64,000 nt of DNA, taken from Halanaerobiales bacterium (lineage in GTDB: Bacteria > Bacillota > Halanaerobiia > Halanaerobiales > DTU029). How positions within the stretch are numbered: the stretch's first letter is position 1; every line of letters starts with the position of its first letter. This document shows, in pieces, positions 6,476 through 57,831 of this stretch. A model generated the notes under the pieces. It was given only the letters and a program-made list of their open reading frames with translations. It ran no database searches and was not told where the DNA came from. The DNA lies in the NCBI GenBank assembly GCA_046546395.1, contig JBKGXW010000001.1, positions 29,599 through 93,598 of the forward strand, read 5' to 3'. The translations under genes and the position numbers were made by a program.

Positions 6476-6618
6476 GGTATAAACTTCTGATAATAAAATG
6501 GGAAATAATAATAAAATATGTTAATAGCCTTTTGGATTTAATATAGTTTTTTTGTATTTAAATTAATTTTAAATTTATCAATATCTAGCTGTGAGCTAAA
6601 AAACAAGGAGGAATAAAG

Positions 6619-8112
6619 ATGATAAATATCAAAAATTATGAAGTATGGTTTGTAACTGGAAGTCAACACTTATATGGAGAAGAGACTTTACGAGAAGTTG
6701 CCGGGCACAGTAAAAAAATAGTGGAATATTTTTCTGAAGGGGATAGGTTCCCGGTTAAAGTTGTCTATAAGCCAGTAATGACAAATTCTTCTACAATTAG
6801 AGATCTTGTTCTGGAGGCTAATGCCAATAAATCATGTATAGGCCTGGTAACCTGGATGCATACCTTTTCACCAGCTAAAATGTGGATAGCTGGTCTTAAA
6901 TTATTACAAAAGCCTCTTTTACATCTCCATACTCAATTTAATAAAGAACTACCCTGGTCTGAGATTGATATGGATTTCATGAATCTGAATCAATCAGCAC
7001 ACGGAGGCCGTGAATATGGTTTTATGGCTTCCCGTCTGCGTATTAATCGCAAGGTTGTTGTAGGTCACTGGAAGGATCAGGAAGTAGTCAAAGAGATGTC
7101 AGATTGGAGTAGAGTTGCAGCAGCATGGCAGGACAGCCAGGGTGCAAAAATAGCCCGTTTTGGTGACAATATGCGTCAGGTTGCCGTAACAGAAGGGGAT
7201 AAGGTAGAAGCCGAGATTCGATTGGGATACTCGGTCAATGGTTATGGTATAGGAGATCTTGTAAAATATGTAAATGAGGTTCAGGATAAAGAGGTTGAGA
7301 ATTTAATTAAGATATATCAGGAAGATTATTTTATAGTTGAAAGTCTATTGGATGGTGGTAAGCAGCATGAATCATTAAGAGAGGCGGCCAGAATAGAGCT
7401 CGGCATGAAAAACTTTCTTAAAGATGGAGACTTTGTCGGCTTTACAACTACCTTTGAGAATTTACACGGACTGAAACAACTCCCAGGTATGGCAGTACAG
7501 CGACTGATGGCTGAGGGTTATGGTTTTGGTGCTGAAGGAGACTGGAAGACTGCTGCACTACTGAGGGCGATGAAGGTAATGGCCTCTGGTAAAGAGACAT
7601 CCTTTATGGAGGACTATACCTATCACCTGGAAGATAACAAGATGAAAGTGCTGGGTTCACATATGCTTGAGGTCTGTCCTTCAATTGCTGAAGGAAAGGC
7701 GTCTATGGAAGTACACCCTCTGGGAATAGGTGGTAAAGCCGATCCGGTAAGGCTAGTTTTTAATGTTTCGCCTGGAGAAGGGCTAAACGCCTCACTGGTC
7801 GATATGGGTAATAGATTCCGTTTGATTGTTAATGAGGTAGAGGTAGTTGCGCCAGATGAAGATTTACCAAAGCTGCCAGTAGCAAGGGTAGTCTGGAAAC
7901 CACTCCCTGACCTAAAAACAGCGGCAGCGGCCTGGATTCTGGCTGGAGGGGCACATCATACAACATTCAGTAAGGTTGTAAGCACAGAAATGTTGGAAGA
8001 TTACGCAGAGATGGCGGATATAGAATACCTGGTAATTGACGATAATACCAGAATTAGAGACTTCAAGAATCAAATAAGATGGAATGAGGTCTACTATAAG
8101 ATAAATTCATAA
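6619..8112 (+). CDS. araA: L-arabinose isomerase
   Basis: 497 aa. The N-terminus [17 protein letters not shown] and the later FMEDYTYH and GAHHT motifs are characteristic of AraA. Confidence 0.95.
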
Positions 8113-10374: not shown

Positions 10375-10406
10375 ATGAAGAATAAGTATTATGAAGAATA
10401 AGTGTT
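10375..10406. repeat. 2 x 16-bp tandem repeat
   Basis: ATGAAGAATAAGTATT / ATGAAGAATAAGTGTT lie directly after the ACT-gene stop codon. Confidence 0.8.
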
Positions 10407-10462
10407 ATGTAACGGAGATAGATATAATCTTATTGTACTAGATTATGAATAAAATGAAGCAT

Positions 10463-10524
10463 AACGTATAGGCAATACGTATGAAATAAAGCAAACGTAT
10501 AGGCAATATGTGTGAAATTAAGTT
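10463..10524. repeat. 2 x 31-bp tandem repeat
   Basis: AACGTATAGGCAATACGTATGAAATAAAGCA / AACGTATAGGCAATATGTGTGAAATTAAGTT lie between the ACT and UPF0210 genes. Confidence 0.8.
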
Positions 10525-10580
10525 AATACATATGTCTTAGCTTGCTAGATGAGATTCTAGAATGCACAGGGGGTTTAGGT

Positions 10581-11939
10581 ATGATTAATCCATATGAAAT
10601 AATGGAAACAATTCGTATGCTGGAAGATGAAAAACTTGATATCAGGACGATTACTATGGGTATTTCATTGAGGGACTGCTGTCACTCTGATGGTGAAAAA
10701 GCACGACAAAATATATATGATAAAATATGTAGGTATGCTGGAAGTCTGGTAGAGGTTGCTGAAGAGATAGAAGTAAAGTATGATATACCAATTATCAATA
10801 AAAGGATTTCAATTACGCCTATGGCAATGATAGCTGAGGCCAGTGGTGATAAAGATTATGTTAAGTTTGCTGAAATATTGGACAGGTCAGCAGGTGAAGT
10901 TGGAGTAGATTTTATTGGTGGATTCTCAGCACTGGTACATAAGGGTTATACCCGGGGTGATCAAATACTTATTAATTCTTTGCCTGAAGCACTGGCGGTT
11001 ACTGAGAGGGTCTGCTCATCAGTGAATGTGGCGACTACCAGGGCCGGTATCAATATGGATGCAGTGGCAGATATGGGTATTATTATAAAAAAAATTGCAG
11101 AGAAAACAGCTGAGAAGGACGGGGTTGGCTGTAGTAAACTAGTAGTTTTTGCTAATGTTCCAGAGGATAACCCTTTTATGGCTGGTGCATTTCACGGTGT
11201 AGGTGAAGGAGAATGTGTCATAAATGTTGGAATCAGTGGACCTGGAGCAATTAAATCTGCTCTAAAGAATGTGAGAAATAGGCCATTTGACGAGGTGGCA
11301 GAGATAATCAAGAAAACTGCCTTTAAAATAACCCGAATGGGTCAGCTGGTGGCAAGAGAAGCCTCAGAAAGACTGGGTGTGTCTTTTGGTATAGTTGATT
11401 TGTCTCTGGCTCCGACTCCTGCAGTCGGTGATAGTGTAGCAAGAATATTGGAAGAAATGGGACTGGAACGCTGTGGTACACATGGTACAACTGCTGCTCT
11501 GGCCCTTTTAAATGACGCAGTAAAAAAAGGTGGTGTTATGGCTTCATCCCATGTTGGAGGATTGAGTGGTGCTTTTATTCCTGTCAGTGAGGATGCGGGG
11601 ATGATTGAGTCTGTTGAAGAAGGTGCGCTCAGTCTGGATAAACTGGAGGCTATGACCTGTGTTTGTTCTGTGGGCCTAGATATGATAGCTGTACCAGGTA
11701 AGACAACAGCGGAGACGATTTCTGCTATTATTGCGGATGAAGTTGCTATAGGTATGATAAACAACAAAACAACTGCTGTCCGTATTATTCCTGCCCCTGG
11801 AAAAGATCTTGGTGATGAAGTAGTCTATGGGGGATTGTTCGGTAGAGCACCTATCATGAAGATTAATCCATATTCAAGTACTAACTTTATTCATAGAGGA
11901 GGTAGAATCCCTGCACCTTTAAATAGTCTTAAAAACTAA
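10581..11939 (+). CDS. UPF0210 (DUF711) family protein
   Basis: [30 protein letters not shown] is the canonical UPF0210 N-terminus. ATG at 10581 follows AGGGGG; the ORF-track extension from 10542 is probably not translated. Confidence 0.85.
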
Positions 11940-41483: not shown

Positions 41484-42923
41484 ATGTTGTTCAGCTGGAC
41501 ATTATTAATAATAATCTTGATGGCTTTTATAATAGGTTTTTACTATTTATATAATTATAAAAGTTTTTATAATGAGCAAGAAATAGAAAGGAATAAAGGA
41601 GGGGGAGGGATGCTCCAGATACATGATGTGGAAGAGTTAGAATTAATCAAGGTCCCTGTAGTTATAGGGGAGAATGTTACTCAAAGAATGGAAGTGACTG
41701 ATTTAAAACTTAATATGCCTGCGATTAAGGTCAGGGATATTAATGCCAGGATTCAAAATATACAGTCTGAGGTAGTAGATGACAGGGTAATTATTCAGGC
41801 AGATATATATAAACAGATTTTTTATGTAGGAACAGATGATATTATTCATTATCAATCTGCAAACGTTCAATTCAGCACCTTTATAGATGTCCCTGGTGCT
41901 GAACCGGGTATGGAACTGGTGATTGAACCAAGTATCGAACATACTATTGGTAAATTAAGTGCAGACGGTACTATGCTCCATGAAAAAATATTGATACAAT
42001 TTTTTGTAAAAGTACTTTCTGTACAACAGTTAATGATAGAAGTTGGCTCTGGGCCCTTAGTAAAAGTAGAACGTGTTGTCGGAGAAAATACCGTAGAAAA
42101 GATGATCAGGAGTAATCTAACACTGGCAGTGGAGGCCAGTAAAATAGTAGATATTATTACTGAAGTGAAGGGGTTAGAGACTGAGGTTGTTAATGACAAA
42201 GTAATTATACAGGGGCTTGTACATAATCAACTTTTTTATATTGGAGAGGATGATGTAGAGCATCTTAAGGGTGAAGATATACCATTTACTGAATTTCTAG
42301 ATCTCCCGGGTGTAGAAACAGGGATGAATGTTCAGCTTTATCCTGCTGTAGAAAATATCAGGCAGGATTTAAGCACTGATAGGCTTAACATTACACAGGA
42401 AGTTCTAATGGAATTATTTGTGAAAGTTACTGAGAAAGTACAGATAAATGTAGTAACCGGGGATGATTCTATGGTTATGTTGCCAGAAGTAATAGGCGAG
42501 AATGTAAAACAGATTACAGATGAAACCACAATGAAGCTTGAGCAGAAGGCTCTTAATGTAAGAGAGATTAGTGCTTCGTTGGAGGATCTAAATGTAGTTG
42601 TTATTAATGACAAGGTAATTATTCATGGAAATATACATAAAACTGCCTTCTATATCGGGAAAGATAATATAGAGTACCATCAGGCTGAAATAATACCATA
42701 TAATACATTTGTAAATGTAATAGGAGCAAAACCTGGGATGAATGTAGAGATAACACCTACTATTACTTTTTCTCAACCAGTATTATCAGGAGAGGGAGGA
42801 TTTTTAACTCAGAAAGTAATTGGAGATATCTTTATTAAGGTAACAGATGATATTCAATTCAGGGTAAGCGAAGTAGGACCATATGAAGCATATAATATAA
42901 AGCCTGATTTCACAAAAAGTTAA
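41484..42923 (+). CDS. Triple DUF3794 (SipL/SPOCS-like) repeat protein with predicted N-terminal TM anchor
   Basis: Three ~135-aa internal repeats share V(V/I)GEN.V...DKVIIQG...FY(I/V)G.DD......F..F(L/I)D(V/L)PG.E.GM. A strong alternative start at ATG 41610 (after AAAGGAGGGGGAGGG) would remove the TM segment. Confidence 0.8.
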   Translation: MLFSWTLLIIILMAFIIGFYYLYNYKSFYNEQEIERNKGGGGMLQIHDVEELELIKVPVVIGENVTQRMEVTDLKLNMPAIKVRDINARIQNIQSEVVDDRVIIQADIYKQIFYVGTDDIIHYQSANVQFSTFIDVPGAEPGMELVIEPSIEHTIGKLSADGTMLHEKILIQFFVKVLSVQQLMIEVGSGPLVKVERVVGENTVEKMIRSNLTLAVEASKIVDIITEVKGLETEVVNDKVIIQGLVHNQLFYIGEDDVEHLKGEDIPFTEFLDLPGVETGMNVQLYPAVENIRQDLSTDRLNITQEVLMELFVKVTEKVQINVVTGDDSMVMLPEVIGENVKQITDETTMKLEQKALNVREISASLEDLNVVVINDKVIIHGNIHKTAFYIGKDNIEYHQAEIIPYNTFVNVIGAKPGMNVEITPTITFSQPVLSGEGGFLTQKVIGDIFIKVTDDIQFRVSEVGPYEAYNIKPDFTKS

Positions 42924-42996
42924 AACTGTTCTATTAATATTGGTGGAAGACAGACCAGGGATTAATTTCAGGGAAAATTAATGTTAATAATAATTT

Positions 42997-43025
42997 ATAA
43001 GCCTGGATCTAAGCTCCAGGCTTAT
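42997..43025. terminator. Bidirectional hairpin between convergent genes
   Basis: Perfect 11-bp stem ATAAGCCTGGA-TCTAAGC-TCCAGGCTTAT. The flanks are A/T-rich rather than clean U tracts. Confidence 0.65.
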
Positions 43026-43130
43026 AATAGGTTAAATATCTTACTTTTGATAGTTTTCAGATTCAAGAGGATTATTTTGCGATTTTAATAAAAATGAAGG
43101 TGAAAGCGAGGAGAAGAATTAGGTAAAGAC

Positions 43131-43562
43131 TTACAAGTTCCGGGTAGGTTCATTGACATGAGCTATATCTAATCTTTCACTTGTTTCTCCGTTATATAAA
43201 ATAAATAAAACCTGATCTTTATAGAAGTATTTTGTAGTAACAGTAAAAAGTTGATATGTTCCACTTTCTACTTCTCCTACCATAATTACTTCATATCCTC
43301 TATATTTTACTAGATCTGCTGTTCCGTTTTTTATTATTACTGCAAGCTCCCCTTTGCTAATACTATAGTTCTCATTATATTGTAGAAAAGCCAATTTTTT
43401 CTTTAATCTTTCTTCTTCCAGATAAGTATATACATTGGCTCTGGTCGTTCCTGAAGTTCTTTTTGTATCCCATGTTTTTTCATTATAGCGGTCCAGTGGT
43501 ATATATTGCACTGCGGGATACTTAAATATCTCCCGGGAATATCCAAATGGCATGATTTTCAC
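43131..43562 (-). CDS. Hypothetical protein (143 aa), no recognised family
   Basis: Clean ORF with GGAGGTG 7 nt upstream of the ATG. It lies between two DUF3794 genes and is preceded by a sigma-K-like promoter. Confidence 0.6.
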   Translation of the reverse strand: MKIMPFGYSREIFKYPAVQYIPLDRYNEKTWDTKRTSGTTRANVYTYLEEERLKKKLAFLQYNENYSISKGELAVIIKNGTADLVKYRGYEVIMVGEVESGTYQLFTVTTKYFYKDQVLFILYNGETSERLDIAHVNEPTRNL

Positions 43563-43571
43563 CTCCAGAAT

Positions 43572-43599
43572 ATTTTATGAGAAATGCAGTCCTGATGTG
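43572..43599 (-). promoter_or_regulatory. Sigma-K-like promoter candidate for the 143-aa orphan gene
   Basis: The minus strand reads AC-N17-CATAAAATA, an exact fit to AC-N17-CATAnnnTA. It ends 4 nt before the GGAGGTG RBS. Confidence 0.35.
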
Positions 43600-43663
43600 C
43601 AAAATATTTTTGTCATAATTAACAATAGAGTTTTATATACATTAGTATAGAAAATAGATTTTC

Positions 43664-43690
43664 ACACTTTAGCTGTTTATGCATATATTA
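43664..43690 (+). promoter_or_regulatory. Sigma-K-like promoter candidate
   Basis: AC (43664-43665), N16, then CATATATTA (43682-43690). It lies 42 nt upstream of the TTG start at 43732. Confidence 0.35.
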
Positions 43691-43731
43691 TAAGTGATAA
43701 GTTTAATAACTTTTAGAAAGGAGGAATCAGA

Positions 43732-45414
43732 TTGGCCGTTAATTTTAATGAAGAGCTGATCAGGGTCGAATACGTTATTGGCGAAGAGACAGTAACAGAA
43801 TCAATTACCGGAACCATAACCATACCTGATGAAAAGCCCCCTGCAGAGAGGATTATTGATGTAAAGGAATTTGGAATAAATAATCTGCAGACCACTATAG
43901 AAGAAGGTGGCGTTGATATAACAGGGGATATTGAGGTAGGTGTGACATACGTAGGAATTGTGGAAGAGACAGAACCTCAACAACCTGTACACTTTGTGCA
44001 TGATACATTGAGAGTTAGCAATTTTGTTGATATTCCTGAAGCAGAGCCAGGTATGAATGTTTTTGTGGATATTACTGTTAGAAGAGTTTCTTTTGATCAG
44101 ATTGATATTCCACCACTTGAACCAGACGAAGATTTCCCGGGGGTAACGACACTTGAGGTTACGGTTGTTATTCAGAAATTTGTCAAGGTTACTGAGTATA
44201 GACAGATTACTGTAATTACCGAAATTACCGGGGTTCCCGAAGAAAATGTAAGAGAGGAACTTCTCAGGATTGAAGATGTTATTGGTGAAAATACAGTAAC
44301 TGTTGTAGTCAGTGGTGAGTTGACACCACCACCTGAATTGGAAAAACCCCCAATAGAAAGAATTCTGAGTGCAACGGCTGAATTGGAAGGTGAAGTTGAG
44401 ACTGACATTACAGAAGATGGTGTAATTATTGATGGTGAAATTTTTGCTGGAGTAATGTATGTCGGTATTGTTGAAGAAGACGAACCTCAACAACCAGTGC
44501 ATTTTCTGGAAGATACCTTTAATTTTAGCGAAACAGTCGATGTAGCTGGTGCAGAAGAAGGTATGTCGGCCCACGTTAACCTGGCAATTCAGAAGATTTC
44601 ATATGATGAAATATTTGATGAAGACGGTAATATTGTTACAGTTGAAGTAGATGTAGTTCTCCGTATGTTTGTTAAAATTACAGAACCTAAGCAGGTTTCA
44701 GTAATTGTAGATGTTATTAGTGATGAGGTTGAACTTGAAAGGGAGTTGCTCAGGGTAGAGGATGTTGTTGGTGAAGATACAATTCATGAGACAACGACTC
44801 AGAGATTGCTAATACCTGAGGCTGATCCAATCAAACCACCTGCAACAAGAATAATTGATTCACAGGCCAGAATAGTAGATCGCGATGTTACAGTAGAATC
44901 TGGTGGGGTTTTACTTGATATGGTTATTGAAGGAAGTATCATCTATGTAGGAGCCGTGGAAGATACTGAACCGCAGCAACCTGTTCATTTCTATCATGAT
45001 ACATTCCCATATGATAACTTCATCGATATATCTGGTGCAGAGCCCGGTATGAACGCCCATGTCGAAGTTGAGGTAACCAAATCTTCTGCTGAACTTGTTA
45101 ATATAAATGCTGCAGGAAATACCAGACAGGTTGATATCACAGTAGTTATCAGGAAGTTTGCCAAGGTTACTGAATTTAGACAGCTGGAAATTATAACTGA
45201 TATCATAGTTGTATCTCCGGCCGCCGATGGAGAATGTCCACCATCTTATGTAGTCTATGTAGTTCAGGCTGGGGATACATTATACAAAATCTCCAGAAGA
45301 TATAGAACAACTGTGGATGCATTGATTCAGGCTAACCCTGATATAAATCCAAACAACCTACAGGTAGGTCAGAAAATCTGTGTACCAAGTGAAATTATCA
45401 GTCCGCGAGGATAA
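43732..45414 (+). CDS. Triple DUF3794 (SipL/SPOCS-like) repeat protein with C-terminal LysM domain
   Basis: Three ~185-aa repeats each contain EL(I/L)R(V/I)E.V(I/V)GE.T, Y VG(I/A)VE(E/D)(T/D)EPQQPVHF and (A)E(P/E)GM. The C-terminus YVVQAGDTLYKISRRYRTTVDALIQANPDINPNNLQVGQKICVP is a LysM domain. The TTG start follows AAAGGAGG. Confidence 0.85.
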   Translation: MAVNFNEELIRVEYVIGEETVTESITGTITIPDEKPPAERIIDVKEFGINNLQTTIEEGGVDITGDIEVGVTYVGIVEETEPQQPVHFVHDTLRVSNFVDIPEAEPGMNVFVDITVRRVSFDQIDIPPLEPDEDFPGVTTLEVTVVIQKFVKVTEYRQITVITEITGVPEENVREELLRIEDVIGENTVTVVVSGELTPPPELEKPPIERILSATAELEGEVETDITEDGVIIDGEIFAGVMYVGIVEEDEPQQPVHFLEDTFNFSETVDVAGAEEGMSAHVNLAIQKISYDEIFDEDGNIVTVEVDVVLRMFVKITEPKQVSVIVDVISDEVELERELLRVEDVVGEDTIHETTTQRLLIPEADPIKPPATRIIDSQARIVDRDVTVESGGVLLDMVIEGSIIYVGAVEDTEPQQPVHFYHDTFPYDNFIDISGAEPGMNAHVEVEVTKSSAELVNINAAGNTRQVDITVVIRKFAKVTEFRQLEIITDIIVVSPAADGECPPSYVVYVVQAGDTLYKISRRYRTTVDALIQANPDINPNNLQVGQKICVPSEIISPRG

Positions 45415-45422
45415 GACGATAA

Positions 45423-45458
45423 GGACTGTGGGGCATTAACCTACAGTTCTTTTTTTTT
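45423..45458 (+). terminator. Rho-independent terminator
   Basis: GGACTGTGGG ... CCTACAGTTC stem (with G-U pairs) followed by T9. Confidence 0.75.
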
Positions 45459-45775
45459 GATCTAATTATATTTCTTTATAGAAAACAAAATATTTCTATA
45501 AGTTAATAGAATGAAAGCATAAGGTCATATATTCTTTATATAGAGTAGATGGCCTTAATTTTTTTCGAGAGTAAACTGTTATTAATACTCCAGAGCGTGT
45601 TCTTTTGGTTATCCTGTAGGGAAGACTTTCTTTGAAACTAGACTTCACTTTATCTTGTAAACTATATGGATATTCTAACTTTAATCACAAATTCTAAATT
45701 ATTGGCATACATTAATAGTGATAAAACTTCTAGTCGATCCAGCCAATGCCTGGAGTTATTTACCACAGTCAATTT

Positions 45776-45784
45776 CATATATTA
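45776..45784 (+). promoter_or_regulatory. Sigma-K-like -10 box (no matching -35)
   Basis: CATATATTA is identical to the -10 candidate at 43682, and both continue as CATATATTATAA. There is no AC at the expected -35 distance. Confidence 0.2.
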
Positions 45785-45816
45785 TAAATAAGAAAGATCA
45801 ACGGGGAGGATTGAAA

Positions 45817-45909
45817 ATGGCTGAAAACAAGAAGAAATCACCTAAAAGCAAAAAGGTGAATGTTAGACCTCATAAGATTAAAAAAGCAATTAAAATTAAA
45901 AAAGCATAG
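45817..45909 (+). CDS. Putative 30-aa lysine-rich peptide
   Basis: MAENKKKSPKSKKVNVRPHKIKKAIKIKKA. The ATG lies 7 nt after GGGGAGGA. The stop lies 14 nt before the next gene, which has its own RBS. The ORF is short and low-complexity, so this call is tentative. Confidence 0.35.
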   Translation: MAENKKKSPKSKKVNVRPHKIKKAIKIKKA

Positions 45910-45923
45910 AAAGGAGGTTAGTT

Positions 45924-47456
45924 ATGCCGCAGCAATTGCGTATTGACGAAACAATTGTTTCCAGAGTACTGGAAACTGAAATAATCAAAAATCTGGGAAT
46001 ACCCTCCCAATTACCTGATGTGGAAAGGGTAGTCAGCGTTAATGCCAGAGTTGAAATAAGCAGCATTGAACTTGAAACAGGTTCTGTTGTGATTAATGGG
46101 ATTATCAGGGCTACTGTATATTATGCCTCTCAGGATGATCCATCTGATGTAATAAGTGTCAGGAGGAACTTTACTTTTTCAGATAGAATTGCTGTTGCTG
46201 GAGCTAGACGGGGACTTGACGCAGACGCAGAAGTACTTATCACAGATATAGATTTCAATGTAGTTAATAATCGAACTATTGGACTTGAATTCACATTAAC
46301 TATTGACCTTGACCTGACTGCGCCTGATACTGTACCATTGATTGAAGAAAGAGAGGATGTAGATATTCGGCGTGAAAGATTTAGAATACAGCGTAGTATC
46401 AGGGAAAGAAACTATACAAGAGAACTTGTAGAAACTATTAGAATTGATACAGATATGCCAAATATAAGAAGAGTTGTTGATGTAGATAATAGTATCCAGA
46501 TATCAGAAATAACCACTAATTATGACAGAGTAAGGGTTCGAGGAATAATAGATAGTGACTTATTATATGTAGATCAGAATGGACAACTGGAATACGAGGA
46601 TCTTACGTATGGTTTTAATGAGTCTTTTTCATTTACTGGAGTAACACCTGATATGGATGCTTATGTTGAAACCAATATTATCAGCGAGGAAGTAGAATTA
46701 ATAGATAGACGAAGGGTCAGGATAACTTCAGAAGTAATCTTTACCATACTGGTAATTGAAGAGGAATTAGTTGAAATACCGACTGATATTGTTAGCCCTG
46801 TAGACAGGGTATCTCCGGTTAGAAGGAATGTTATAGTAGAAAGGGTCGTTGTTGAGGAAAGGACCAGAGTTTCCGCCAGAGATAGGGTGACTATTCCCCA
46901 GGGTAATCCTGATATTGCACGTGTTATCAGTGCAAGTGGCAATATTCGAGGAGGTAGTATTGAGGTAGATGCTCAAAACGGTGGGGTTTTAGTAAGTGGT
47001 GTTATTGATGCTAATATCATTTATGTGGCAGACTTAGAAGATCAACCTGTCTACTTTGCACCTGCTACCGTTACATTTAGTACTTTTATAGATATTCCTG
47101 AAGTGGAGACAGATATGCAGGCTTATGCTGATATAGATCTTAACAGAATAACTGCTTCTGGAATAAATGAAAGGGAAATAAGTGTCAGGGCCATTCTTGA
47201 TGTTAACTTACTTGTAACAGAAAGGGTACGTGTCCCTGTAATAACAAGTATTTCAGATCGTCCTACACAACAGCCGGAGCAACCAGCGGCACCTGCGCCT
47301 GGTCAGCAAGTCACCTATGTTGTCCAATCGGGTGACACTCTTTATCTTATTGCTCAAAAGTTCAGTGTAACAGTTGATAGAATAATTTCAGTTAATAATA
47401 TAACTAATCCAGGGAATTTACAGGTAGGACAGCGCCTGATAATACCAGGAGATTAG
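45924..47456 (+). CDS. DUF3794 (SipL/SPOCS-like) repeat protein with C-terminal LysM domain
   Basis: Three divergent DUF3794-type modules (for example V.INGIIRATVYYA, VRGIIDSDLLYVD and VSGVIDANIIYVA, each followed by F..F...(A/T)...(L/M)DA). A Pro/Gln linker precedes the LysM domain YVVQSGDTLYLIAQKFSVTVDRIISVNNITNPGNLQVGQRLIIP. Confidence 0.85.
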   Translation: MPQQLRIDETIVSRVLETEIIKNLGIPSQLPDVERVVSVNARVEISSIELETGSVVINGIIRATVYYASQDDPSDVISVRRNFTFSDRIAVAGARRGLDADAEVLITDIDFNVVNNRTIGLEFTLTIDLDLTAPDTVPLIEEREDVDIRRERFRIQRSIRERNYTRELVETIRIDTDMPNIRRVVDVDNSIQISEITTNYDRVRVRGIIDSDLLYVDQNGQLEYEDLTYGFNESFSFTGVTPDMDAYVETNIISEEVELIDRRRVRITSEVIFTILVIEEELVEIPTDIVSPVDRVSPVRRNVIVERVVVEERTRVSARDRVTIPQGNPDIARVISASGNIRGGSIEVDAQNGGVLVSGVIDANIIYVADLEDQPVYFAPATVTFSTFIDIPEVETDMQAYADIDLNRITASGINEREISVRAILDVNLLVTERVRVPVITSISDRPTQQPEQPAAPAPGQQVTYVVQSGDTLYLIAQKFSVTVDRIISVNNITNPGNLQVGQRLIIPGD

Positions 47457-55543: not shown

Positions 55544-56302
55544 ATGGCCTTAGATGTAATAATCTTAGCTGGTGCTCCAAATAAAGGTCCTTTAAAAGAA
55601 ATAACTACCACTGATCATGAAGCTTTAATTAAGATTGCAGATATACCCATGGTCGAATATGTGATTAAGGCTGTTAATCAGGCCCAAAACACAGGAAATA
55701 TAATAGTTGTAGGTCCTGGAGACGAATTGAAAAAGTCGATTCAGGAAAAAGTGGACCTATTTATTGAGTCTGGTGAATCATTAAAAGAGAACATCTTTAA
55801 GGGGATAAATAAAACTGATAAAAAAGATTATATATTATTAATGACTTCAGACATACCTTTAATTACAGCAGATGTTATTGATGATTACATAACAACCTGT
55901 CTGGAAGATGGTGAGGCTGATCTTTATTACCCTATAATACCGAAAGAATATAATATAATGAAATTCCCGAAAGTTAAAAGAACTTATTTTCATCTTGCTG
56001 AGGGAGTATTTACTGGTGGGAATATGGTACTTTTAAAGCCCAAAATTCTGGAAGAGTCAAATGAGATGTTGGAAAAAGCCCTGGCGCTGCGAAAAAAACC
56101 ATGGAAAATGAGTCGCTTATTGGGAATGAAGTTTATTCTTAAGTTTGTAATAGGGCGGCTATCTCTTGGAGAAATCGAGAGTAAAGTTGCCAGTATAACG
56201 GGATGCAGAGGACACTTCATGATAACAAATCACCCGGAAATAGGTTTTGATGTAGACAAACCCAGCGACTTACGAATAATGCAAGATAAAGTGAGCTCTT
56301 AG
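55544..56302 (+). CDS. MobA-like NTP-transferase domain protein (nucleotidyltransferase, substrate unknown)
   Basis: The N-terminal ILAGAPNKGPL glycine-rich loop and the LLMTSDIPL motif fit the NTP_transf_3 fold. Its last 16 nt belong to the downstream tandem repeat. Confidence 0.7.
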   Translation: MALDVIILAGAPNKGPLKEITTTDHEALIKIADIPMVEYVIKAVNQAQNTGNIIVVGPGDELKKSIQEKVDLFIESGESLKENIFKGINKTDKKDYILLMTSDIPLITADVIDDYITTCLEDGEADLYYPIIPKEYNIMKFPKVKRTYFHLAEGVFTGGNMVLLKPKILEESNEMLEKALALRKKPWKMSRLLGMKFILKFVIGRLSLGEIESKVASITGCRGHFMITNHPEIGFDVDKPSDLRIMQDKVSS

Positions 56303-56643
56303 TTTCAGGGCGGTTTTACTGAAACTTAGTGGAACGAATCCAGGGTCTTACTGTCACTTGCTTACATTTTAGAAGTAGCGAAATTAGTGACAGTTAGACA
56401 TCGGGTAAAGTGAGCTCTTAGTTTCAGGGCGGTTTTACTGAAACTTAGTGGAACGAATCCAGGGTCTTACTGTCACTTGCTTACATTTTAGAAGTAGCGA
56501 AATTAGTGACAGTTAGACATCGGGTAAAGTGAGCTCTTAGTTTCAGGGCGGTTTTACTTGAAGTTTAGACGAGCAAATACTGGGACTTACTGTCACTTAG
56601 ATACATAGCAAGCTACAAATATTAGTGACAGTTAGTATCGAGT
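56287..56643. repeat. 3 x 119-bp tandem repeat (copies 1 and 2 identical, copy 3 diverged)
   Basis: Units start at 56287, 56406 and 56525, each with TAAAGTGAGCTCTTAGTTTCAGGGCGGTTTTAC. Each unit holds a long-range stem ACTGTCACT ... AGTGACAGT. Copies 1 and 2 also hold AGTTTCAG-N10-CTGAAACT. Confidence 0.95.
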
Positions 56644-56665
56644 GAAAACCCATATATAATGTTTT

Positions 56666-56702
56666 AAGAGTCCCTTGCTCATGAGAGTAATCGGGGACTC
56701 TT
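56666..56702. terminator. Hairpin between convergent genes (likely terminator of the minus-strand ATPase gene)
   Basis: AAGAGTCCC-N19-GGGACTCTT, a perfect 9-bp stem. The U tracts are weak. Confidence 0.5.
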
Positions 56703-56754
56703 GTTAATTAAAGTTATTTATCCTGAGAATGTATGAGATACTGCAAATTAAAAA

Positions 56755-57831
56755 TTAGTTCCCTAGTATTTTTCTGATAAGATCATTTCTGTAGTGGTCG
56801 ATTTTTTCAAAGTTCATGGCTGAGACATAATATTCTTCCAGTTCATCATGAAGGTTCTTGGCACTTTTCAGAAAGTAATATACTCTTTTCATCATATCCT
56901 CATATAATTTTTCTGCATCAAGAATTTCGGCATTGTAATCCTTTATATAATCCAGATTTATTGTTTCTACCAGATTAATTGTGTAGTCTTTTGCTTTTGT
57001 AGCTTCAAGATAATGCGGTGGGGTTCCTACCAGTAAAGCTGTATTTAATTCAGGTATTATGGCAGCATCCAGCTCTTCTGGGTCCATGGGGCAGTGTAGG
57101 TATAGGATAAAATAACCGTATTTAGCCGCTTCTGCACAGAAACCCTTAATTAATGAAGATTTTCCAGTACCCGGTTTACCCTTGATCACGATCCTGTTCT
57201 CTATATCTTCACTTAAATTTTCCAGATAATTGACTGCACCGCCGGGCGTAATAGCACTTCCAAATAAATGACGTTCTGAACCTGAGCTAATTTCTCTTTT
57301 GAGTACATTTTTACAGATTAGTTTATCTAATAGTTTATTATAAAAATCTTTATCCTGACTTTTCTGGTAATATTTTTTCCAGTGTAAATGTATACACTTA
57401 GCTGCTTTTAAAAAACTATATGCCTGACTGAAACGCTGGCTGATTAGATCTGTTAAATACATAATATCACTTCTGTTTTCTTCCAGTGAGTCTCTATTCC
57501 AGTATTTCCCCAGATTAATAATCTCATCAATTGCACCTGGATAGATGGGATCGGTCATATGAGGTGCTGTGCCGTCAAGCACAGCGGTTTTCAATTCTGG
57601 TATAACAACACCATCAAGAGAATTATTATCAGAAGAACACCAGTGAAACTCTATATCATAACCTGCATCATTTAATTGATAGCCAATTTTTTTCATAAAA
57701 GTTGATTTCCCTGTACCGGGTCCACCTTTTATAATATAGACTCTGTCGGCATAATATGGGAGATACTGATAAAATGAATAAAAGCCCTGTGGGGTATTAC
57801 CTCCCGGAAAGAAATTTTTAATCTTTGACAT
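56755..57831 (-). CDS. P-loop NTPase with two Walker A motifs (PRK06851-like conserved Firmicute ATPase, function unknown)
   Basis: Two halves each carry a Walker A motif (GGPGTGKST; GKPGTGKSS) followed by ...HC(S/P)...D(G/A)(V/A)(V/I)IPEL...GT(A/P)PH, implying an internal duplication. Confidence 0.7.
   Translation of the reverse strand: MSKIKNFFPGGNTPQGFYSFYQYLPYYADRVYIIKGGPGTGKSTFMKKIGYQLNDAGYDIEFHWCSSDNNSLDGVVIPELKTAVLDGTAPHMTDPIYPGAIDEIINLGKYWNRDSLEENRSDIMYLTDLISQRFSQAYSFLKAAKCIHLHWKKYYQKSQDKDFYNKLLDKLICKNVLKREISSGSERHLFGSAITPGGAVNYLENLSEDIENRIVIKGKPGTGKSSLIKGFCAEAAKYGYFILYLHCPMDPEELDAAIIPELNTALLVGTPPHYLEATKAKDYTINLVETINLDYIKDYNAEILDAEKLYEDMMKRVYYFLKSAKNLHDELEEYYVSAMNFEKIDHYRNDLIRKILGN

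Follow-up and report, generated by a model that had tools for sequence, protein, structure and literature searches.

The 64-kb window analysed here (64,000 nt of contig JBKGXW010000001.1, positions 29,599 to 93,598 of the forward strand, in assembly GCA_046546395.1 of a Halanaerobiales bacterium) contains three tandem 119-bp repeats, the first of which begins inside the last codons of a gene for a MobA-like nucleotidyltransferase. This locus raises the question of what such repeats are: relics of the gene they overlap, a structured RNA, a set of recombination sites, or copies of something that arrived from elsewhere. Based on comparisons with related genomes, we suggest that the array is very probably made up of three copies of a mobile repeat that is small, non-coding and non-autonomous and that is dispersed in Halanaerobiales genomes.

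Tandem Repeats Finder, run on the whole window, placed the array at 56287-56635, with a period of 119 and 2.9 copies (score 521-552), and by a wide margin this was the strongest repeat of the window. The units, of 119 bp each, follow one another head to tail and start at 56287, 56406 and 56525, where the first-pass annotation of this DNA, made by eye, had placed them. Its description of how they relate was borne out by alignment: units 1 and 2 show no difference over 119 nt, while unit 3 agrees with them at every one of the first 33 nt and from there on falls to 65% identity, with one indel. Unit 1 (56287-56405, + strand; type A) is composed of a left end, hairpin 1, a linker, hairpin 2 and a right end, ..GACATCGGG, and the TAAA after this right end is common to the next unit. 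Unit 2 (56406-56524, +) has the same sequence, and unit 3 (56525-56647, +) joins a type-A head of 33 nt to a type-B body ending in ..TATCGAGTG followed by AAAA.

Hairpin 1 of unit 1 (56298-56329, +; CTTAGTTTCAG-N10-CTGAAACTTAG, arms of 11 nt) recurs at 56417-56448 in unit 2 and is weakened at 56536-56568 in unit 3, where the 3' arm has changed to CTTGAAGT, a disruption that had already been noticed. Hairpin 2 of unit 1 (56345-56399, +; GTCTTACTGTCACT-N27-AGTGACAGTTAGAC) has 14-nt arms, 93% complementary, with a conserved T.T mismatch. It recurs at 56464-56518 in unit 2 and at 56585-56636 in unit 3, in which, as claimed before, both arms (ACTTACTGTCAC.. / ..GTGACAGTTAGT) are kept around a different loop. 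Neither hairpin motif had a match elsewhere in the window, and for hairpin 1 shuffled sequence gave an expectation of 0 matches. The region 56287-56720 folds more stably than its shuffles, with a z of about -6 on either strand. Scans found no tRNA or tmRNA. Terminator scanning flagged a weak 5-bp stem with GGTTTT in every unit, so that the earlier statement on the absence of terminator-like U tracts holds for proper U-tract terminators, of which the units have none, and fails for these weak ones.

The origin of the units is indicated by their distribution. Searches with degenerate patterns taken from the window and from the metagenome-assembled genome (MAG) JBDNGI01, and then with hidden Markov models (HMMs), traced the homologues of these units to about 24 distinct loci, in relatives and metagenomes (fetched loci are cited below by L numbers). 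In JBDNGI01, the closest representative genome (protein 78% identical), one homologous unit lies at the same place, with compensatory changes in both hairpins, and copies occur on nine further contigs, which makes at least ten loci in all. Four loci lie in an isolate, Orenia metallireducens MSL40, and six in Orenia-like metagenome contigs; a marine metagenome, another metagenome, a Bacillota MAG and Paradesulfitobacterium ferrireducens (a tandem pair) contribute one locus each. Unit 1 of the window was matched over its full length by an HMM built from Orenia-type copies only (E = 7.5e-15). Among the explanations offered by the first-pass annotation, a repeat similar to repetitive extragenic palindromic (REP) sequences or MITEs (transposable elements of the miniature inverted-repeat type) is thus the one that gained ground: dispersed copies, which it had named as a sign of such a repeat, were found, though in related genomes rather than in the 64-kb window. 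An exact search of species-representative genomes with the window's hairpin-2 arms gave 0 matches, the left-end pattern gave 0 matches in viral contigs, and a blastn search of plasmids and phages with the array returned none. Full-text searches of the accessible literature, with the end sequences and on repeats and MITEs in Halanaerobiales, yielded no description of the family. Pattern matches at L031, L043 and L052, all in coding DNA, were rejected as chance, as were most of those outside Firmicutes.

At different loci the flanks of the copies are unrelated up to a TAAA on either side: every copy is bordered on either side by (T/C/A)AAA and has TAAA(G) at its left junction. Common to all copies are the left end TAAAGTGAG(T/C)TCTTAG with hairpin 1 after it, the linker ..GAAC(A/G)AATCC.. 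and hairpin 2, which is long and irregular and leads to the right end ..ATCGG(G/A)TAAA(T/G). In the left end TAA, TGA and TAG sit in three different reading frames. No open reading frame (ORF) was found within the units. Terminal inverted repeats are likewise missing: each inverted repeat in 56200-56760 forms an internal hairpin and does not join the unit ends, and the left end TAAAGTGAGTTCTTAG does not match ATTTATCCGACACC, the right end in reverse complement.

The copies range in size from 57 nt to about 250 nt. An optional module of about 25 nt, CCCTAAAGGATGACCTAAAGGCC (a direct repeat of CCTAAAGG), occurs at varying internal positions of family members, between the hairpins in some and within the hairpin-2 loop in others, and was not found outside the elements in the fetched loci or the window. 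We recorded it at L011 271-287, L020 2426-2442, L027 1794-1810, L034 875-891, L036 540-556, L032 404-420 and L001 4163-4179. In the 57-nt mini forms the left end is joined straight to the right end via a shared GGGAGTTTT. They were found at three different loci (L035 3025-3079, identical with locus L046; L045 5313-5368; L049 13583-13638), and either are mobile themselves or represent the same deletion recurring.

The left end has a direct consequence for the genes next to it. At seven independent loci the upstream gene runs into the left end and stops there, and all three frames are used. TAG serves as the host stop for the nucleotidyltransferase gene, for an ECF-type membrane protein gene (L011), for def (L037) and for a UDP-glucose dehydrogenase gene (L051), TGA at L019, and TAA at L027 and L035. 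The 16-nt head of the element likewise opens the copies at def, an ECF transporter component, pgi and others. Reconstructed empty sites need one TAAA only and restore sensible gene ends; when the element and one TAAA were removed in silico from L037, the reconstructed def terminated as ..FVDKLGEMG*, and fmt started 4 nt later. At L051 the unit splits the dehydrogenase frame: the Pfam central domain breaks off at profile position 52/94 and the frame picks up directly after the element, into the C-terminal domain. The catalytic GGSC motif of this dehydrogenase has decayed to RVSY, so that the catalytic cysteine motif is lost. The gene (L051 4166-5213) is spread over several short ORFs, and is either a pseudogene or part of an error-bearing, low-coverage contig.

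The nucleotidyltransferase locus provides the most complete series. The gene (55544-56302, +; 252 aa; an ORF with the Pfam domain NTP_transf_3) ends in 16 nt, 56287-56302, that consist of a T (one base of an Asp codon), AAA GTG AGC TCT (K V S S) and TAG, that is, four codons rather than the five that had been counted before the stop. The KVSS tail is restricted to its five closest homologues (78-100% identity), and the next ones end in DKFIS, DEFIS, KIIS and KYIL. Since the 16-nt head is found at unrelated genes and element-free relatives end in ..DKFIS*, the KVSS* tail is evidently derived from the element, which supplies GTG AGC TCT TAG (V S S *) after the TAAA site. The first-pass annotation had read copies 2 and 3 as relics of the gene's 3' end; the derivation is the reverse. 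The insertion would have swapped three C-terminal residues of the nucleotidyltransferase. The 90%-identity cluster of this protein contains the window protein only, with no near-identical allele bearing another tail.

Among relatives, the homologue at L056 (77% protein identity) has no unit, and its GAT AAG TTT ATA TCA TAA (..DKFIS*) is followed directly by a terminator. At L054 (85%) a single unit precedes ATATTAAAA, after which comes this same terminator. L001 (78%) combines one unit with a left-end fragment of 16 nt and a long-form copy in inverted orientation, and L053 (87%) has a unit A, a unit B, a 32-nt left-end fragment and then TTATATATATAA. In the window, two A units and a hybrid unit are followed by AAAACCCATATATAA (56644-56661, +), which seems to be a relic of the original last codons and stop, decayed and displaced downstream. 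On homology judged by eye with TTT ATA TCA TAA of L056, with TTATATATATAA of L053 and with ATATTAAAA of L054, the A/T-rich stretch after each array is to be read as this decayed old tail. The comparison shows that in the ancestor of the clade one unit evidently inserted at a Lys-codon TAAA/TAAG, four codons before the gene end, and that the number of units at the locus later diverged among relatives (0, 1, 1+, 2+ and 3).

Downstream of the array there is a stable hairpin, AAGAGTCCC-N19-GGGACTCTT (56666-56702, no strand assigned), which lies between the convergent genes, is absent from the output of the simple terminator scan and has a counterpart at the matching position in L053. It is probably the terminator of the nucleotidyltransferase transcript; taken as such, it places the array in the 3' untranslated region (3' UTR). 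The convergent neighbour outside the element is a double P-loop ATPase gene (56755-57831, -), also present in relatives with and without the element, and both ORFs and Pfam assignments agree with the first-pass placement of the array between these two genes.

The hairpins themselves covary. In an alignment of 11 short-form units with an RNAalifold consensus of 28 pairs, 92.9% of the cells were paired, compared with 25-49% in slid controls. Changes on both sides affected 8 of the 28 pairs (4.0 +/- 1.3 in shuffles, with 8 reached in 1 of 500) and 20 cells (6.4 +/- 2.4 in shuffles). For instance, pair 18/45 of hairpin 1 is U-A in five units, C-G in five and U-G in one, and six pairs of hairpin 2 have both-side changes across the family. 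Pairing is maintained across the family, and the selection on the stem that had been suspected from copy 3 is supported at the family level.

The two strands are not equivalent in the short-form units. On the TAAAGTGAG strand there are about 29 G.U cells versus about 4 A.C mismatches, and all 13 units fold better on this strand, by 0.4-11.5 kcal/mol. At nine of nine short-form loci it is the locally G-rich strand and is co-oriented with the upstream gene. Orenia-type copies are without this preference: some fold better on the bottom strand, and their orientation is mixed relative to neighbouring genes and to GC skew (local skew being a proxy for replication direction). The strand pattern fits recognition of single-stranded DNA, selection on a sense RNA, or C-to-T bias on the G-rich strand alike.

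These data bear on the rival explanation that survives best, namely that the units are mainly a functional structured RNA (a 3'-UTR or intergenic stabiliser, a processing signal or a small RNA family) spread by selection, in which the three-frame stop would bar ribosomes. The covarying hairpins, the large excess of G.U over A.C on one strand, the better folding of the top strand in all 13 short-form units and the co-orientation at all nine short-form loci suit such a role, and the window units, situated between the stop codon and the downstream hairpin, would be transcribed. We nevertheless regard it as improbable. A scan against Rfam 15, which the first-pass annotation had suggested, gave 0 matches at or above the gathering threshold in the window and 0 in 11 loci with family members, and only chance-level matches for both at E <= 10. 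The units have no promoter or terminator of their own, the neighbouring genes are functionally unrelated, and some copies lie within an ORF, are truncated or comprise just 57 nt. Moreover, Orenia-type members occur in both orientations, some folding better on the bottom strand, and the strand asymmetry of the short forms could stem from the C-to-T bias. The narrower proposal of a locus-specific small RNA derived from the 3' UTR is not supported, as the family is not tied to this gene, occurs in both orientations and has one copy inside the UDP-glucose dehydrogenase frame. An RNA function is, in any case, compatible with mobility: REP, ERIC, BOX and Correia elements are mobile yet active in RNA.

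Site-specific recombination is a much weaker candidate. According to this explanation a TAAA core and the folded hairpin 2 would be the substrate of an integron-like attC system or of a different recombinase, of tyrosine or serine type, and the arrays would be empty cassettes. The family resembles attC sites (VCR, CALIN) in that units of 113-125 bp, about 120 bp in the window, stand head to tail with a short core at each junction and carry a long imperfect hairpin, and the 3' arm GTTAGAC of window units 1 and 2 fits GTTRRRY. However, among the window units only these two have such an arm, and most family members fail the motif (GTTAGTC, GTTAGCC, GTTAGTA). The 5' arm reads CTTAC, not ..AAC, hence the conserved T.T mismatch; the R''/R' cores (RYYYAAC / GTTRRRY) are not kept by the family as a whole. 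The units follow one another without ORF cassettes, the window has no integrase or other recombinase, and the insertion sites (TAAA/TAAG) are many, unrelated and loosely defined. We consider this explanation very unlikely.

An assembly artefact, affecting the array or its copy number, has a smaller chance still. Between units 1 and 2 the identity is 100% across all 119 nt, and identical tandem copies of this length are beyond counting by short reads. Short-read Logan contigs, in addition, break at the unit head: in the assembly of SRR21542053 the flanking genes are identical and both contigs stop within the shared 33-nt head. Such breaks are expected from a real two-variant repeat, because one head then leads to two different bodies in the assembly graph, and they fit at least two unit variants, 1, 2 or 3 identical copies being indistinguishable. 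Units lie at the same place in four independent assemblies of related organisms (L001, L053, L054, L055), and sequences as distinct as A and B could not have arisen by any collapse or expansion. The artefact considered in the first-pass annotation is accordingly unlikely for the array as a whole, and the exact number of identical units is the part that may still be one. Finally, the idea that the gene's 3' end and 3' UTR were themselves duplicated in tandem on the spot, suggested by the match of each unit's first 16 nt to the gene's last codons and stop, is refuted by the presence of this head, along with the remainder of the unit, beside unrelated genes at about 23 further loci, by the ..DKFIS* end of unit-free relatives and by the old tail still recognisable after the array.

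The history of the array can be partly traced. Window unit 1 is clearly orthologous to unit A of L053, with identical stems and different loops, and unit 3 clearly corresponds to unit B of L053 in its linker and right end. L053 has a single A unit where the window has two, and its unit B has a head of its own with an intact hairpin 1 (GCTTCAG/CTGAAGT); on window unit 3 the type-A head breaks this hairpin. Two events in the window lineage would therefore be needed: a duplication or re-insertion of A, unit 2 being the product of either a recent local duplication or a re-insertion, and a gene conversion or recombination that would have placed an A head on B. Compared with the single unit of L001, unit 3 gave about 70% identity either way, and orthology could not be established.

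Tandem arrays recur in the family (window, L053, L011, L019, L041, L017). At L011 the neighbouring units differ by a 25-nt insert and at about 20% of positions, which fits separate adjacent insertions better than a fresh duplication. We hypothesize that a resident copy ending in TAAA would re-create the preferred target at its own border, so that an array could grow head to tail by re-insertion; the strictly head-to-tail arrangement with a shared TAAA would follow from the TAAA end being also an insertion target. Slippage, unequal recombination and gene conversion may reshape the arrays as well, which would explain why units 1 and 2 are identical and why unit 3 has an A head. Some arrays end at their right edge in a left-end fragment (L001 4099-4114, 16 nt; L053 2772-2803, 32 nt; L027 1891-1933, 43 nt, identical to the head of the same unit), which could be what a deletion has left of an additional unit once present, or a by-product of the insertion mechanism.

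Mobilisation of the repeat may occur in trans, by an enzyme that recognises hairpins on one DNA strand in the way that HUH/Y1 transposases of IS200/IS605 and of REP do. Movement as a single strand of HUH/Y1 type is favoured by the lack of inverted termini, by the one-strand hairpins near both ends, with their CTTA..TTAG bases and T.T mismatch, and by the fixed tetranucleotide at the left junction and right end. We regard it as a tentative possibility that deserves attention without being the expected outcome; the rest of the probability belongs to an unknown enzyme, a recombinase or purely recombinational spread.

Several observations weigh against the view that the units are mobile copies. 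No autonomous copy (left end, ORF, right end) was found in the fetched loci by regular-expression and HMM searches, and no transposase or recombinase among about 50 window ORFs; ORF scans and alignment agree here with the first-pass annotation, which had reported neither a transposase nor CRISPR-like spacers. A tblastn search of about 450 kb of fetched loci, made with an IS608 TnpA query, found no TnpA, and the sole TnpB element met, at L045, has end hairpins unrelated to those of the family. Dispersal was seen in relatives only, the searched 64 kb of the source genome holding one locus. The flanking TAAA is the same everywhere, so that a target duplication and a fixed end of the element look alike. 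The CTTA..TTAG base is all that hairpins 1 and 2 have in common, whereas in IS608 the hairpins of the two ends are nearly identical. Orenia-type copies stand in both orientations to GC skew, which speaks against a strict lagging-strand rule, although in Halanaerobium hydrogeniformans the IS605 copies, too, are without strand bias (PMC7290912). Lastly, the co-orientation and better top-strand folding of the short forms could reflect selection at the RNA level.

The TnpB element (L045 6300-7960) contains an IS605-type tnpB (6521-7690, 389 aa, zinc-ribbon CPKCGH..CLACGY), with matching end hairpins TTCCAAATCTT..GATTTGGTGGG on both sides, and lies 1.2 kb from a mini element. We also looked by eye for IS608-style pairing between guide and cleavage sequences: only part of the copies have, ahead of hairpin 1, an ATTT that complements TAAA position by position, hairpin 2 is preceded by no such sequence, and the idea was dropped.

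A more far-reaching reading would make the family a new class of mobile element, targeted to TAAA, devoid of terminal inverted repeats and moved by an enzyme not linked to any known insertion sequence (IS). Its marks would be two covarying single-strand hairpins, with the CTTA..TTAG base and T.T mismatch, and a three-frame stop acting as a 'landing pad' in the last codons of genes. We think this unlikely.

Small structured intergenic repeats are well known in general, and the family can be compared with several of them. With the palindrome-associated transposable elements (PATEs) of IS200/IS605 and with REPs and bacterial interspersed mosaic elements (BIMEs), served by Y1 HUH TnpA/RAYT proteins, it shares the small non-coding form without terminal inverted repeats, the covarying one-strand hairpins near both ends, a fixed 4-5-nt left-junction sequence, and dispersal in intergenic DNA with clustering at some sites. 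IS200/IS605 elements are abundant in Halanaerobiales, in which a PATE-like copy has been described (PMC7290912). On the other hand, no cognate tnpA, tnpB or RAYT gene with the family's ends was present among the fetched loci, the family hairpins share nothing beyond their base, and the copies show no uniform link between orientation and replication strand. BIME arrays alternate, whereas those of the family run strictly head to tail. REPs measure 20-40 nt and usually exceed 100 copies; the family has units of 113-250 nt in tens of copies at most. REPs carry a GTAG tag, which is absent from the family.

Classical MITEs and the ERIC, BOX, RUP, Correia, Bacillus bcr1 and Rickettsia RPE repeats resemble the family in a length of about 100-250 bp without ORF, strong predicted structure, an intergenic or 3'-UTR location and a short A/T-rich sequence at both junctions. 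As in classical MITEs, several dispersed copies of a small ORF-less element occur per genome (JBDNGI01, MSL40), and as in BOX there are modular variants with optional inserts. Change of a protein C-terminus or location within an ORF is a further likeness, since RPE and QMITE can alter protein C-termini or sit within ORFs (PMC10969869). The family differs from these repeats in having no terminal inverted repeats, ends that match no known IS, and a left end that has a stop in every frame and provides the host stop at seven loci. We know of no described precedent for a three-frame-stop left end serving in this way, although no systematic search for one was made. CRISPR arrays are different, as there are no spacers between the units and no cas gene in the window scans, and so are type III antitoxin repeats, the neighbours being convergent nucleotidyltransferase and ATPase genes, with no toxN-like gene in the window scans. 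The family is new but of a familiar kind, that of REP-, MITE-, BOX- and PATE-like intergenic repeats, and opens no new category.

Outside Halanaerobiales, Paradesulfitobacterium ferrireducens PLL0 has a tandem pair of family-like units (L017 4060-4310, -). They begin TAAAGAAAACTTACTGCAG.. and have the right end CCATCGGGTAAAG as in window units 1 and 2, and the second is interrupted and truncated. Hairpin 1 of this pair also reads CTTACTGCAG..CTGCAGTTTAG and resembles hairpin 2. Blautia and other Lachnospiraceae have long hairpins of about 170-190 nt (L008 60-220; L015 1500-1700, -; L010 1-170; L012 2560-2740; L014 20-200) with an apex CTTACTG(A/C)GACTTAG..GAAGGCTCT(T/C)CCTGA..CTTAGTC(T/G)CAGTTAG. 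These show the same CTTACTG..CAGTTAG stem as family hairpin 2, with T.T mismatches one helical turn apart, and those of L010, L012 and L014 also have CTTAGYGGA..GAAATCC, as in the window linker. Their outer stems are wholly different between loci and still paired, and they had no Rfam match. A relationship of these hairpins to the family is uncertain, as the search pattern itself selected part of the match.

Elsewhere in the window, a 31-nt tandem repeat, AAATAAAGCATAACGTATAGGCAATACGTATG (10452-10522, 2.2 copies, 87% matches), lies directly upstream of a DUF711 gene (10542-11939), and a 16-nt repeat was noted at 10375-10409. Three successive paralogous SipL/SPOCS-domain genes, two of them with a C-terminal LysM domain, occupy 41484-47456.

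Two features of the family stand out, the three-frame stop in its left end and the well-resolved 0/1/2/3 series at one locus. This orthologous series shows a repeat landing in the last codons of a gene, replacing its stop and then growing into an array. For annotation it means that the C-terminal ..KVSS* of this and of other Halanaerobiales proteins (def, the ECF transporter component and others) is element-derived and not ancestral, and that contigs of Halanaerobiales tend to break at the element. In the window, about 360 nt of highly structured RNA would have been added to the 3' UTR of the nucleotidyltransferase gene, which may change the stability of its mRNA in the way that REP, ERIC and BOX elements do. 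If the family did prove to be a new class of mobile element, the CTTACTG..CAGTTAG motif of Paradesulfitobacterium, Blautia and other Lachnospiraceae would point to a recognition module widely shared in Bacillota. As the family is present in a cultivable isolate, Orenia metallireducens, both the mobilising enzyme and the effect on mRNA are testable there.

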